NCBI GenBank assembly: GCA_049297855.1
Contig: JBAQVB010000006.1
Location: 1,958 to 65,957, forward strand
DNA length: 64,000 bases
Direction: 5' to 3'
From: Candidatus Nanoperiomorbaceae bacterium
GTDB taxonomy: Bacteria > Patescibacteriota > Saccharimonadia > Saccharimonadales > Saccharimonadaceae
The position numbers and the translations under genes were made by a program. The notes beneath the pieces were generated by a model. That model did not search any database, had not been told where the DNA came from, and worked only from the letters and a program-made list of their open reading frames with translations. Shown here piece by piece: positions 8,927 through 61,099 of the stretch (the stretch's first letter is position 1; each line of letters starts with the position of its first letter).

Positions 8927-9300
8927 AATGCGTAATGAAACCGTTTTCGCAATGTAGTGAATGTGATTAAACTGTAAATTGACGCAAATGCTCATTAAAG
9001 TGCAGACGCGCTTCACGATAGTATTAATTTAACTAGCATTTTGGCAAAAGATAGCCCCGCTAGATAATTTGCCCGAAACGGCGTTAATACCGGGCGTATA
9101 TACTAGATTCATGCTACCGGATGGGGCGCAACTATAATCTTGATAAATATGGATATGCGTTGAGTTTAGATCATAGCTCATGCCACCACTACCAACATTA
9201 TATATGTATACTTGATCTGTAGGGGTAGATAATTGACCTATATAGGCTCCCAAATTACCATCATTGGAACGGGCACTCGCGGTTGTGTTAGCTATCCAGT

Positions 9301-9306
9301 GGGGGG
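9301..9306 (-). repeat. C6 homopolymer (coding strand) at the frameshift point of pilin copy 1
   Basis: Plus strand reads GGGGGG. With 5 C the reading becomes ...SSPHWIANTTASARSNDGNLG..., continuous with ORF 9029..9322. Confidence 0.8.
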
Positions 9307-9544
9307 CTAGACCGAACAGCATAGCCGCTTATGCTCCCTTGATTGTCTACTTTATATGACTCAATGGCACTCACGACTTTGCCGACATTTTGCCTAACTG
9401 CCGTATCCTTTTGCGAATTTTGTAACGCTGGCCACGCAATGAAAACAACCAAAAATATTAAACCAGCAATCGCTAAAACCAACGCAACTTCAATTATCGT
9501 AAAACCTGAATTTGAACCTTAAGTTACAGTTGAACGTCCAGATC

Positions 9545-9564
9545 CTCTCTCTCCCTCTCTCTCT
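9545..9564 (-). repeat. (CT)4-CC-(CT)5 tract, which is (GA)n on the coding strand of the pilin copy 1 leader
   Basis: Read directly from sequence: cctctctctccctctctctctt. Encodes QEREGERG. Confidence 0.8.
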
Positions 9565-9868
9565 TGCTGGATCATGTTTTTCTCCTTCTTTTTCATACTT
9601 TTTCGTGCCGTCCAGTTAATCACAAGCGAGATAGCGTGTCAAGCGTCTATGGTTTTTTCGGCGAGTTTTATTGAATTTACTATGCTATCTCATTGTGTTA
9701 TGGCAACGATTGGCGATCAATATGGTTATTTGCTTTTCTGTTTCACGTATGCTACAATAAATCAGTAAATATCAAGCGAGTAAGGTTAAATATAAACTTT
9801 GCGACTCTATTTTCACAATAGAACAGAGATATATCTCTTATTTTACGCGCATAAAAGGAAAGGACGAA

Positions 9869-29131: not shown

Positions 29132-29671
29132 TCATTTGTTTGCGACGAAATCAAGTGTCGCTTTGATAAATGTAGTTGCGAAATTGACTTCGTCCGCAAC
29201 TAAATCTCCGTTAGCGTCAAACATTCTTGGGGCGAAACTTAAATAAAATTCTGGCCGCAAAAACACATTCGCGTTGATAAAAGTTAGCACTTTGCGCGTA
29301 TCTACTTGAGCCAGCGCCGTACCGAGTGAACTGGGCGAAGCGCCAGCCATAACGACTTTTTTGCCGGCCCAGGAATTGTGCGACGACCAACTCGTCCAAT
29401 CCAGTGCATTTTTGAGCACGCCGCTAATGCTGTGGTTGTATTCCGGACTGACGATGAATACTAAATCCGTCGCCTCGATTTGGTCACGTAACGCAATCAC
29501 CAATTGATCGGGGTGGTCATAGTTATCGGAATTAAATAACGGCAAGTTAACGTCTGCGTATTCGATCTTATTATCCGCGTCAACTTCGCCGATGATGCGC
29601 GCCAAATTATGCGCTAATTTGGCGTTCAGCGAATCTTTGCGCAACGAACCAACTATAAATAATATTTTCAT
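29132..29671 (-). CDS. NAD(P)H-dependent FMN reductase family protein
   Basis: 179 aa. MKILFIVGSLRKDSLN and SPEYNHSISGVLKNALDW motifs. SD AGGGAG upstream. Confidence 0.85.
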   Translation of the reverse strand: MKILFIVGSLRKDSLNAKLAHNLARIIGEVDADNKIEYADVNLPLFNSDNYDHPDQLVIALRDQIEATDLVFIVSPEYNHSISGVLKNALDWTSWSSHNSWAGKKVVMAGASPSSLGTALAQVDTRKVLTFINANVFLRPEFYLSFAPRMFDANGDLVADEVNFATTFIKATLDFVANK

Positions 29672-29767: not shown

Positions 29768-29776
29768 TGTTAAAAT
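29768..29776 (+). promoter_or_regulatory. Extended -10 (TGtTAAAAT) 6 nt upstream of the pilin copy 2 ATG
   Basis: Sequence motif only. Confidence 0.45.
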
Positions 29777-29782
29777 GACCGC

Positions 29783-30305
29783 ATGATGAAAATCGCAAGA
29801 AATCACGGACGAGTTAGTTTCCCTAAACTAAAAACATTACCCCCCCCCACGATCTAGCGGCTTCACTATAATTGAGGTAGCGTTAGTCTTAGCTATAGCC
29901 GGACTTATTTTCCTGGTAGTGTTTATCGCCTGGCCAGCACTACAGAATTCGCAACAAAACCAGGCCAGGCGTCAGGACGTCGGGCGAGTGATAAGCGCAT
30001 TGGAAGCATATAAGATGGACCACCAGGGACAATTCCCACTTGGTGGATGGTATAAATCAGATGGTTCAAGTAGTAACCGGGAATACAATTTCTCAAACTA
30101 TACTAACAAGCTCTCCCAAATATACAATATTGAGGTCTTTGACCTAGGCACTTCTACTTGGAGAGCTATGGGTAGCGCGCGAGATATCAATGTAATTCCC
30201 GGCAGAGTTTGTCCTGGCGACGCTCGTACACCAACCTCGGATAACGCTGCGGTAGAAGTGGGACTTGTCGGCAACGGCGACGCCAACTATTGCCAGTCGC
30301 TATAA
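29783..30305 (+). CDS. Type IV pilin-like protein, copy 2. The reading frame is interrupted at the poly-C tract in the leader (frame OFF as assembled).
   Basis: ATG 29783/29786 gives MMKIARNHGRVSFPKLKTLPPP.. and stops at TAG 29855-57. Body frame runs from GGC 29859: G|FTIIEVALVLAIAGLIFLVVFIAWPALQNSQ... to stop 30305. C-terminal Cys pair present (C...YC). One C fewer restores the frame. Confidence 0.8.
29840..29848 (+). repeat. C9 homopolymer within pilin copy 2 leader codons
   Basis: Counted directly: 9 consecutive C. Confidence 0.95.
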
Positions 30306-41517: not shown

Positions 41518-42049
41518 ATGATTAGCGATAAATCCATTGCGACGACCAAAACATCTGCAGACATAAACGAGAATACCCCCCCACCGAGCTAGTGGCTTCA
41601 CCATTATCGAGGTAGCGTTGGTTTTAGCTATCGCTGGGCTTATCTTTCTCGTGGTATTTATCGCCTGGCCAGCGTTACAAAATTCGCAAAAAGATACGGC
41701 GTTACGTCAGGATACCGGCCGCATCGCCAGCGCCCTGGAGTCAATAATGGTGGATAATCAAGGAGAGCTAGACACTCATCTTGTTTCTTCCACGATTCAA
41801 AACTATGCTGGCAAGTTAAGTGTTATTAATAATATTCGGGTGTTACCGTGGTGGTCAAATAAAGCTAATAACATGCTAAATCATAGCACGGCGGTAGTTT
41901 ATGACAACGCAAGCTGCCCACTACATCTCGGTTCTAGCAACCAAAACACAAATCCAATATTTGGCTTTTCTAATAGCAGTCCAATAATAAATGGCGCCGC
42001 TGTCGTGGTTTGGCTCAACTCTGGCGCCTTGTACTGTGTAGGAGTGTAA
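41518..42049 (+). CDS. Type IV pilin-like protein, copy 3. The reading frame is interrupted at the poly-C tract in the leader (frame OFF as assembled).
   Basis: ATG 41518 gives MISDKSIATTKTSADINENTPPPS and stops at TAG 41590-92. Body frame runs from GGC 41594: G|FTIIEVALVLAIAGLIFLVVFIAWPALQNSQKD... to stop 42049. C-terminal Cys pair (SCPL...LYCVGV). One C fewer restores the frame. Confidence 0.8.
41576..41582 (+). repeat. C7 homopolymer within pilin copy 3 leader codons
   Basis: Counted directly: 7 consecutive C. Confidence 0.95.
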
Positions 42050-50951: not shown

Positions 50952-51578
50952 GTGAATAAACTAAATTTGAACCAGCCACTAGCCGTTGTGGTCGTCGGAT
51001 TGCCAGGCGCGGGCAAGACGTTTTTTGCGGAACGTTTTGCAACGATGTTTGGCGCCCCGGTCGTGAGTCGTGATCGAATTCGTTGGACGTTATTTGCCAA
51101 TCACACTTATTCTGACAACGAAAACGCCATGGTCAATCAAGTGGCCGATTTATTTATAAATGAGATGTGGCGCTCTAAGCACACTTTTGTATTGGACGGC
51201 GGTTACGATCGCCACCAGACACGCGATCATTTAATCAGGCTAGCAAAAAAAGCTGGTTTTTATCCACTTGTGGTCGAGATTCAGTCCGGTGAACCAATAT
51301 CGCAGGATCGTGCCACGCACCGCCGCGCCAAAAATCCAGATGATAAATATAATCAATCTTTGTCGACGACGCAATTTGCGAAATTCAAAAACGATTACGA
51401 GGCGCCACGCTCCGGTCAGAACACCGTGGTCATCAGTGGCACCCACACAACGCAAACCCAATTACGAACGGTACTACAGAAAATCATCACACTGGAGAAA
51501 ACGGCGACCACTGAGGAGAAACGAGTTGCTAGTAAAAATAACGCGTCGGGCGCAGCCAGCAAAGTTTTCATCCAATAA
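50952..51578 (+). CDS. P-loop ATPase/kinase (AAA_33 / zeta-toxin-like fold)
   Basis: 208 aa. GTG start after AGGAGGGG. Walker A GLPGAGKT. Confidence 0.75.
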   Translation: MNKLNLNQPLAVVVVGLPGAGKTFFAERFATMFGAPVVSRDRIRWTLFANHTYSDNENAMVNQVADLFINEMWRSKHTFVLDGGYDRHQTRDHLIRLAKKAGFYPLVVEIQSGEPISQDRATHRRAKNPDDKYNQSLSTTQFAKFKNDYEAPRSGQNTVVISGTHTTQTQLRTVLQKIITLEKTATTEEKRVASKNNASGAASKVFIQ

Positions 51579-51690
51579 CGCACCGCCGGATCAATCGATC
51601 TGTTGCGTTCAATACCGCATTTTAATCGCTAGCGCTCGTGCCAGTTCAATTTTACATGATGACGAATTCGGCGATATCGAGGTCAGGCGC

Positions 51691-52335
51691 GTGCGTGGCT
51701 CGATGCTGCGACTCAAAATTCAAACTAATGGCCAAATCGTGGCGCAATTGCCGCATTTCGTCTCGACACGCGAAGTCGTGAAATTACTGGAACGATCGCG
51801 GCCAAGTCTGCGTCAAAATCTCAAAGCCATGCCGACTAAAAAAAATTATCACGACAACGATACTATCGGTAAAAGTCATATTCTGCATTTACGCAGCAAC
51901 GCGGTGCGCGATCACGTCATGGTCACAAAATCAGCCATCAACGTCGATCTGACGTCACGTACGTCTTCCGCCATTCGCGAACACCTGATCAAAGACGGTG
52001 TTGAAAAGGCTTTGCGCTTGGAAGCCAAAGCTTATTTACCGCGCCAACTGCGTTTTTGGGCGCTCAAATTTGCCGATCGTGGTATTCATTACGAGCGCGT
52101 CCAGTTCACGCACGCTAAAAGTCGCTGGGGTTCATGTAGCTCAACGGGCACAATTTCGCTCAATATTATGCTGATGACGTTACCGCAAGATCTGATCGAT
52201 TATGTGTTATTGCATGAGCTCAATCACACAATTCACATGGATCACAGCGCGGCGTTTTGGGCCGAGCTAGAGGAAATTTGTCCCCACGCCAAACGTCGAC
52301 GTAAACTAATGCGCCAATATTCGCCATATTTGTAA
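51691..52335 (+). CDS. YgjP/DUF45-type (M48-like) zinc metallopeptidase; start codon uncertain
   Basis: HELNHTIHMDHSAAFW (HExxH...H..FW) motif. ORF 51268..52335 overlaps the upstream gene. The first canonical in-frame start after that gene's stop is GTG 51691, but conserved-looking residues (FGDIEVRR) lie just before it. Confidence 0.6.
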   Translation: MRGSMLRLKIQTNGQIVAQLPHFVSTREVVKLLERSRPSLRQNLKAMPTKKNYHDNDTIGKSHILHLRSNAVRDHVMVTKSAINVDLTSRTSSAIREHLIKDGVEKALRLEAKAYLPRQLRFWALKFADRGIHYERVQFTHAKSRWGSCSSTGTISLNIMLMTLPQDLIDYVLLHELNHTIHMDHSAAFWAELEEICPHAKRRRKLMRQYSPYL

Positions 52336-60484: not shown

Positions 60485-61099
60485 ATGAATGGCATAATGA
60501 AGATAGCCAAAAATAATACCCCCCCCCGAGTTTCGGTAGAGAATAAGATTGGAGAGGGAGGCAATCAGCGCGGTTTTACTGTTATAGAGGTCGCTCTGGT
60601 TTTGGCCATCGCTGGTCTGATTTTCCTTGTCGTTTTCGTCGCTTGGCCAGCGCTCCAAAATTCGCAAGCGGATACGGCCAGGCGGCAAGATGTCGGGATC
60701 GTTATCAGGGCTATTGATTCTTACAGATTGGATGCATCCAACGGTGGCTGGTTTCCAGCCTGGCGAGGGGTATATCTAAATGGCAACCGCCAGTCGCTTT
60801 CCTTTGGCCCCTATCTTCAAGGACTATCCAGCAACACGCAGTTTGTTTACATTCGCGCGGGTAATAATCCTGGCTCGAATTGGACTTACAAAGATTCTCT
60901 CTCGTCTGGAAGCGTAACCAGCAATGCTACTACATCTGATTCCGTCCCGTCCATGAATGGTATTTCGGTATATACTGGTGCGGAATGTGGAAATGGTCAA
61001 TCAATGATTGCGCTGGGTGACCCAGCTGTAAATCCGACACATATTGCGGTTGTAATTCGATTATCTTCTGGAATTTATTACTGTCAACAAGCCTACTAG
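60485..61099 (+). CDS. Type IV pilin-like protein, copy 4 (frame ON through a C9 tract)
   Basis: 204-aa intact ORF: ...MKIAKNNTPPRVSVENKIGEGGNQRG|FTVIEVALVLAIAGLIFLVVFVAWPALQNSQ... with a C-terminal Cys pair (AECGNG...IYYCQQAY). The likely start is ATG 60497 (MKIAKN, parallel to MKIARN in copy 2). Confidence 0.85.
   Translation: MNGIMKIAKNNTPPRVSVENKIGEGGNQRGFTVIEVALVLAIAGLIFLVVFVAWPALQNSQADTARRQDVGIVIRAIDSYRLDASNGGWFPAWRGVYLNGNRQSLSFGPYLQGLSSNTQFVYIRAGNNPGSNWTYKDSLSSGSVTSNATTSDSVPSMNGISVYTGAECGNGQSMIALGDPAVNPTHIAVVIRLSSGIYYCQQAY
60519..60527 (+). repeat. C9 homopolymer within pilin copy 4 leader codons
   Basis: Counted directly: 9 consecutive C, read as T-P-P-R. Confidence 0.95.

Follow-up and report, generated by a model that had tools for sequence, protein, structure and literature searches.

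The opa genes of Neisseria are scattered paralogs that carry CTCTT repeats within their signal-peptide codons, so that the frame is set separately in each copy, most copies are out of frame, and the surface domains vary. Here we describe type IV pilin genes with a related arrangement in a bacterium of the Candidate Phyla Radiation (CPR). They lie in a 64,000-nucleotide stretch of Candidatus Nanoperiomorbaceae bacterium (contig JBAQVB010000006.1 of assembly GCA_049297855.1, positions 1,958 to 65,957 of the forward strand), which we refer to in its entirety as the window. The gene under study, g1, has a run of nine C within its leader codons that separates the leader from a pilin body in another frame, and three paralogs, g2, g3 and g4, are found elsewhere in the window. 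Considered as a family, these genes indicate that repeat slippage probably turns pilus subunits of this bacterium on and off. Like other CPR bacteria, Saccharibacteria live attached to bacterial hosts, and the type IV pili of TM7x (Nanosynbacter lyticus) mediate host binding, competition among episymbionts and twitching motility (PMC11623550, PMC9894109). The parts of g1 are as follows.

29783-30305, + strand: g1, whole gene, leader repeat C9, out of frame in the window
29768..29776, + strand: TGTTAAAAT, an extended −10-like motif 6 nt 5′ of the g1 ATG, read from the sequence
29783..29857, + strand: g1 leader frame, MMKIARNHGRVSFPKLKTLPPPTI, closed by the stop TAG at 29855-57
29840..29848, + strand: g1 C9 tract, which leaves the gene out of frame; C8 or C11 would bring it into frame
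29859..30305, + strand: g1 pilin body, G/FTIIEVALVLAIAGLIFLVVF..., a 147-residue mature protein, intact and in the +1 frame relative to the leader (here and below, the slash marks the cleavage site)

Two start codons, ATG 29783 and ATG 29786, open the leader, in which the C9 run encodes three prolines (codons 20-22). The body opens at GGC 29859, reads G/FTIIEVALVLAIAGLIFLVVFIAWPALQNSQ... and has 30305 as its last position. On its 5′ side this frame is blocked by TAA 29829-31, and the window contains no ATG, GTG or TTG between that stop and GGC 29859, so the body lacks a start codon of its own. Computational removal of one C joins the two parts into ...KTLPPPRSSG/FTIIE..., a 173-aa prepilin. 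The gene is thereby toggled by a single unit, with C8 or C11 giving the 173-aa prepilin and C9 giving a stop after 24 codons. An original prediction, made from the letters of the window, had described this anatomy: the motif TGTTAAAAT 6 nt before ATG 29783/29786, the leader stop TAG 29855-57, only two codons downstream of the tract, the C9 run at 29840-29848 that parts the leader from a body in another frame, and the fusion of the two at C8 or C11 into a prepilin with a cleavage site. The sequence agrees with it throughout, coordinates included, and the C8 product passes both PF07963 and TIGR02532.

Profile matches, an invariant cysteine pair and a modelled helix and sheet identify the predicted proteins of this family as type IV pilins. 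PF07963 (N_methyl) scored 22.2 bits for g1, 21.3 for g2 and 21.8 for g3, against a cut-off of 21.2, and TIGR02532 scored 16.6 and 20.8 bits against a cut-off of 16.3, with repaired g1 passing. The class III cleavage and methylation motif, G(-1)/F(+1)...E(+5), reads G/FTIIE in g1, g2 and g4 and G/FTVIE in g3. For repaired g1, AlphaFold (AF2), given a family alignment of 14 sequences, returned a model that has a predicted local distance difference test score (pLDDT) of 84.4 and shows a helix over residues 29-79 (51 residues) followed by a beta-sheet of five strands. Residues C143 and C170 (repaired g1 numbering) are invariant in the 14 aligned family members, in keeping with the C-terminal disulfide-bonded region of type IV pilins. 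A Foldseek search of the g1 model against the PDB gave no match at E <= 0.001, and a sequence-profile search of the PDB gave the geopilin N-terminal domain as its sole match (E = 8.5e-4). The homologs carry the NCBI name Candidatus Nanoperiomorbaceae (Saccharibacteria).

A six-frame scan of the window for pilin N-termini returned the four paralogs g1 to g4. The three beyond g1, which the original prediction had missed, are the strongest evidence.

41518-42049, + strand: g2, whole gene, C7 leader repeat, out of frame
41518..41592, + strand: g2 leader frame, MISDKSIATTKTSADINENTPPPS, closed by the stop TAG at 41590-92
41576..41582, + strand: g2 C7 tract, with which the gene is out of frame; either C6 or C9 would correct this
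41594..42049, + strand: g2 pilin body, intact within the window
60497..61099, + strand: g3 pilin gene, leader MKIAKNNTPPRVSVENKIGEGGNQRG/FTVIE, in frame
60519..60527, + strand: g3 C9 tract, in frame
9029..9575, − strand: g4, a dead pilin paralog, with ATG 9575-73 after an AAGGAG Shine-Dalgarno sequence and the G-1 codon at 9506-04
9544..9564, − strand: g4 leader (GA)n/(CT)n repeat; the window has no longer dinucleotide array
9301..9306, − strand: C6 tract in the g4 body (G6 on the + strand), at which the frame breaks and which C5 or C8 would restore

A start ATG, a leader and a full N-terminal helix are present in 4/4 copies, and g3 has a second open ATG further upstream, at 60485. Over the 32 N-terminal residues of the mature protein, g1, g2 and g4 do not differ, and g3 is almost the same. 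Over 36 codons of these N-termini, the proportion of synonymous differences (pS) between paralogs is 0.68-0.99 and that of nonsynonymous differences (pN) 0.02-0.09, such that synonymous sites are almost saturated. Near-saturated pS together with low pN argues that the copies are old, have been kept under protein-level selection, and include no ancient pseudogene; for the greater part of their history, to judge by these substitutions, every copy was constrained at the protein level. The C-terminal halves of the paralogs are strongly divergent. Two lesions break g4, one a TAA that lies in frame at 9521-19, the other a frameshift at the only G6/C6 run in the window. This TAA (9519-9521, minus strand) lies four codons before G-1 and, compared with the leader of the database protein P0034 (…RSTVTSG/F), resembles a 12-nt insertion, TAAGGTTCAAAT. 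The same TAA is found in the public run SRR33541911, and the copy is dead in at least two strains. As for surroundings, g4 lies upstream of rplF (L6), g2 downstream of rpsI (S9) and g3 upstream of rplJ (L10), which makes ribosomal-protein operons their neighbours and places all three outside any pilus-machinery operon.

Long C runs are confined to the leaders of this family. In the window, C runs top out at a length of five (seven runs), none has six, and then come one C7 and two C9; each of these three runs of at least seven lies in the leader codons of a pilin paralog (g1, g2 and g3). The count of CCCCCCC 7-mers is modest by itself, with 7 observed against 1.82 expected and 3/100 shuffles reaching 7. 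Under uniform placement, the chance of all three runs falling within the ~100-nt sense-strand leaders of pilin genes is ~3e-8. Three observations place the tract inside translated leader codons. The peptide ahead of it is conserved, as MKIA[KR]N in g1, g3, P0064 and P0080 and as MK.IKNHFAKN in P0006, P0016, P0031 and P0046; a clear Shine-Dalgarno sequence precedes the leader ATG in g4 and in an ortholog group from another species (the L003 group); and g1 and g2 have no later start. A tract within a 5′ untranslated region followed by a downstream start is ruled out, since g1 and g2 contain no ATG, GTG or TTG from the tract to G-1 and the pre-tract peptide is conserved.

The region upstream of the leader differs among copies. 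Neither g1 nor g3 has a Shine-Dalgarno sequence, and the two have in common a homologous TG-extended −10-like box 6-10 nt before the ATG (29783-29800 and 60497-60515). For g1, the position of TGTTAAAAT suggests a leaderless or nearly leaderless mRNA, and the shared box suggests leaderless mRNAs for g1 and g3 alike. In g4 and the L003 group a strong Shine-Dalgarno sequence is found instead. A two-hexamer promoter scan around g1 did not call TGTTAAAAT, an extended −10 being outside the scoring of that tool, and a promoter and terminator scan near g1 gave a site count no higher than in shuffles. Beside g1, the gene for a flavodoxin-like FMN reductase has a 3-nt in-frame indel (CGA) at 29143-29145 that distinguishes the window from both SRR7457760 and SRR28060973.

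Using the neighbouring ribosomal and housekeeping proteins, we found the same species in ~8 public runs, with flanks 98-99.9% identical, and computed tract lengths and frames directly from the consensus assemblies. The g1 tract is C9 and out of frame in 3/3 samples (the window, SRR7457760 and SRR28060973), and in all three the body is a clean 148-codon open reading frame (ORF). The two public assemblies are independent, come from near-identical strains (L001, L002) and have the same 5′ region along with C9. For g2, two samples have C7 (the window and SRR28060973) and two have C10, all four being out of frame. At g3, the window and SRR29761461 (L095) both have an in-frame C9 tract, and in SRR33541911 (L181) the tract is C10 and out of frame, followed by an intact 175-codon body. 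The g3 region of SRR7457760 is split between two contigs, the upstream one ending in ...AATAATA and C11 and the downstream one starting with C12 and GAGTTTCGG, so at least 11 and at least 12 C are present. Such ends are the expected product of mixed tract lengths in a de Bruijn assembly; they suggest such a mixture and are no proof of it. In SRR33541911 the (GA)n repeat of g4 has 8 nt more than in the window, and in SRR29761462 the contig stops within the repeat.

Contigs also break in or beside pilin leader repeats in other independent assemblies (the start of L094, the end of L182 and the end of L093). Several NCBI Nanoperiomorbaceae pilins are annotated as partial, with the break inside the leader (P0004, P0022, P0034, P0053 and P0087). 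Breaks at leader repeats may reflect length heterogeneity within a sample, and they leave pilin genes systematically cut short in CPR genomes assembled from metagenomes. A different kind of variation is seen in the central part of g2 (~41771-42007), which is non-homologous to positions 2905-3198 of L087 (SRR7457760); the flanks are 98-99% identical and the conserved N- and C-termini (…VWLNSGALYCVGV) are kept. This suggests a cassette-like replacement by recombination.

Relatives outside the species were scanned for the same device. In the ortholog group from another species, L003, L085 and L086 read in frame from an ATG preceded by a Shine-Dalgarno sequence, and the alleles L083 and L084 have a 4-nt indel exactly at the C-rich run that places them out of frame. 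L084 (ENA ERZ15185054) has, in addition, AAG in place of the leader ATG, ~70 nt upstream of the C run. In-frame relatives have one to three prolines at the tract site (TTPQQ, TTPPQQ and TFPPPQQ). Just 3′ of the tract, the ortholog group from the other species has a conserved TTG that the gene caller used as the start of at least six database proteins (MTD… N-termini); it may be an alternative start for a short leader or a mere gene-caller fallback. A search with the g3 protein gave two close relatives only. Scans of GTDB species representatives (a set without the window's own species) and of JGI/ENA metagenomes with the family alignment, 80 loci each, returned nearly all tract-free genes with short MKKTEKG/F leaders, L003 being the sole carrier of a C6 among them.

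We propose the following reading of these data. The C9 run would be a hypermutable simple-sequence repeat within the codons for the leader of a type IV pilin paralog. During replication, slipped-strand mispairing would add or remove C's, and the altered number would move the pilin body into or out of frame with the start codon, making this a switch at the level of translation. Gene g1 would belong to a small pilin family scattered among housekeeping genes, each member with its own start, a leader repeat and a divergent C-terminal (surface) domain, and different cells or populations could show different pilin subsets in the manner of Neisseria opa. We further infer that reversible switching persists at g1 itself, that pili would incorporate the in-frame product once it is processed, and that the role of switching would be to help in attaching to hosts or in evading phage or host. 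Three lines of evidence lead to the contingency-locus reading: the anatomy of the genes, the restriction of long repeats to leaders, and the polymorphism of g2, g3 and g4. Read alongside the relatives, the length and frame data for these three copies have the signature that slipped-strand contingency loci are predicted to leave in populations. As reconstructed from the assemblies, g3 is the live toggling copy, g1 and, in most strains, g2 are broken at the tract only, and g4 is dead. Support is therefore partial, being strong for the family and unproven for the g1 copy. That g1 is an out-of-frame contingency gene, switchable by repeat slippage, seems to us somewhat probable.

A number of observations weigh against this reading. 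No length variation was seen at g1, and an in-frame g1 or g2 product is absent among 5.8 billion database proteins, the best matches being the truncated calls P0001 (105 aa, from the g1 search) and P0121. The original prediction of stochastic pilus switching is supported in part, by g3, where a tract of the same class changes frame between populations, and finds no support at g1, with C9 in 3/3 samples and no in-frame allele. Two substitutions separate the g1 strains, both nonsynonymous with zero synonymous, and this pattern fits relaxed constraint as well as diversifying selection. The g2 copy of L087 (SRR7457760) has an extra in-frame TAG in its body, and g4 is broken beyond repair by slippage; to judge by these lesions, part of the family (g4, and g2 in one strain) is decaying or being lost rather than switching. 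The public runs that contain the species were represented by consensus assemblies rather than reads, and heterogeneity within populations is suggested by contig breaks alone. Finally, the distribution among relatives marks the trait as lineage-specific, which speaks against a general feature of Saccharibacteria.

Several of these points are equally what one would see if g1 were a recently inactivated pseudogene, in which a redundant paralog fixed one extra C at its most mutable site and is drifting toward the state of g4, the tract being a hot spot and no longer a switch. The invariant C9 with no in-frame allele in the databases, the exclusively nonsynonymous strain differences, the additional stop in one strain of g2 (a gene of the same architecture), and the TAA and body frameshift of g4 all favour it. 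The original prediction had named a uniform C9 with neither transcript nor protein and no equivalent tract in related genomes as the mark of a plain pseudogene; the tract is indeed uniform in the three samples. Against inactivation, the g1 body has remained a clean 148-codon ORF in three strains, and its residues 1-32 are identical to those of g2 and g4 despite near-saturated synonymous divergence, which means that any inactivation was very recent. The tract is also still an uninterrupted C9 from which one slip restores the gene, and the same device toggles in nature at g3. We regard inactivation as unlikely, while taking it seriously; on sequence alone, an out-of-frame contingency gene and a very recent pseudogene are indistinguishable.

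A further alternative is recoding, in which the +1 register is itself functional. Here pilin would be made at a low, graded level from the out-of-frame gene, either by +1 slippage of tRNA-Pro on CCC-C during a stall at PPP or by slippage of RNA polymerase. Ribosomes stall at consecutive prolines, and long homopolymers cause RNA polymerase to slip. The +1 frameshifting of tRNA-Pro at CCC-C is well documented (PMC7577736, PMC8324841). In every out-of-frame allele the body is in the +1 frame (g1 C9 three times, g2 C7 twice and C10 twice, g3 C10 once), and the two g2 lengths differ by exactly 3. The register is accordingly constant in g1 (three samples) and g2 (four samples), with g3 in frame in two samples and +1 in one. 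However, single +1 insertions from an in-frame length explain the shared register, the chance of which is ~1 in 8 with four observations. The 0-frame stop lies two codons past the tract (CCC CCC CCC ACG ATC TAG) and is not adjacent to it, and the upstream AAACTAAAAACATTA contains no Shine-Dalgarno-like stimulator. In two samples g3 has the same tract in frame, where efficient slippage would be harmful, and g2 in L087 has a stop codon in its body. Recoding is improbable in our view. We would give similarly little credence to a combined model, in which the +1 register is selected rather than a product of mutational bias and tract length sets a graded expression for each paralog, as a recoding rheostat layered on the DNA contingency locus.

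An assembly artefact, with a true tract of C8 and a constitutive gene, is very hard to credit: homopolymers are error-prone in long-read assemblies, but the same g1 C9 in the independent SRR7457760 and SRR28060973 assemblies excludes a one-off homopolymer error. In addition, g2 C7 is reproduced in SRR28060973 and g3 C9 in SRR29761461, and the remainder of the window is tightly filled with ORFs that stay intact, even where they span A8 and T8 runs. The original prediction had reserved the case of an assembly error against itself, and the consensus assemblies speak against such an error. A silent-cassette model of the pilS type is ruled out, as every copy has a start and an N-terminus.

Elsewhere in the window, two long ORFs on the + strand (50952-51578 and 51268-52335) overlap by ~310 nt in different frames, which may mean that a gene is frameshifted, that the overlap is programmed or that an ORF is spurious.

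If the contingency-locus reading is true, independently switching pilins would give ultrasmall, regulator-poor cells stochastic variation of the adhesive or antigenic face of the pilus, with a bearing on host range, escape from pilus-targeting phage and persistence. The known range of contingency loci, so far made up mainly of host-adapted pathogens, would also come to include the CPR. There is a practical side as well. Annotation pipelines for metagenome-assembled genomes (MAGs) truncate or drop these genes (P0001, P0121 and many "partial" pilins), and assemblies break at the tracts. Because of this truncation and breakage, the pilin repertoires of CPR MAGs may be undercounted. The relevance lies in a known mechanism acting, as proposed, in pili that mediate the episymbiotic lifestyle of the CPR, and in the annotation of pilins in MAGs.

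The original prediction had considered such switching undescribed for CPR or Saccharibacteria pili, and the literature searched is in line with this: full-text searches gave no description, in Saccharibacteria, Patescibacteria or CPR, of phase variation driven by repeats. The text of the main paper on Saccharibacteria pili has zero occurrences of frameshift, homopolymer or slippage, and its matches to "phase" are unrelated to phase variation. The type IV pili of TM7x belong to the same phylum and the same protein class as those described here; unlike the genes in the window, the homologs recovered from the oral lineage have short MKKTEKG/F leaders without a tract. Programmed +1 frameshifting of the prfB type, or tRNA-Pro slippage, resembles these loci in the CCC-C context, the body in the +1 frame and the nearby 0-frame stop, and differs in that the stop here is not adjacent, a stimulatory Shine-Dalgarno sequence is missing, and the register is not conserved in g3.

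Among pilin systems, pilE/pilS likewise combines multiple pilin copies, a conserved N-terminus and divergent C-terminal domains, and the suggested exchange in g2 is cassette-like. However, pilS copies have no promoter and no coding region for the N-terminus, whereas the copies here have a start, a leader and an N-terminal helix, and their on/off device is the repeat rather than gene conversion. With Neisseria pilC, whose poly-G tract falls within signal-peptide codons, and with the poly-G/C contingency loci of Campylobacter and Haemophilus, the window genes share a G/C homopolymer of at least seven near the 5′ end of a gene for a pilus or surface component, toggling by one base and an early stop in the wrong frames. 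The pilC product acts at the pilus tip or in assembly and has a Sec-type signal peptide; here, by contrast, it is pilin subunits whose class III prepilin leader holds the tract, which recurs across a paralog family. As in opa, the window contains scattered surface-protein paralogs, each with its own start, a repeat in its leader codons and divergent surface domains. Unlike opa, the repeat is a homopolymer (C7-C12), or (GA)n in g4, rather than a pentamer, and the products are type IV pilins rather than outer-membrane beta-barrels. The bacterium is a monoderm CPR episymbiont, g4 and g2 of one strain have further lesions, and the switching proposed here is read from sequence. The mechanism is a classical one, closest to Neisseria opa and pilC, and what would be new is its occurrence in this phylum.

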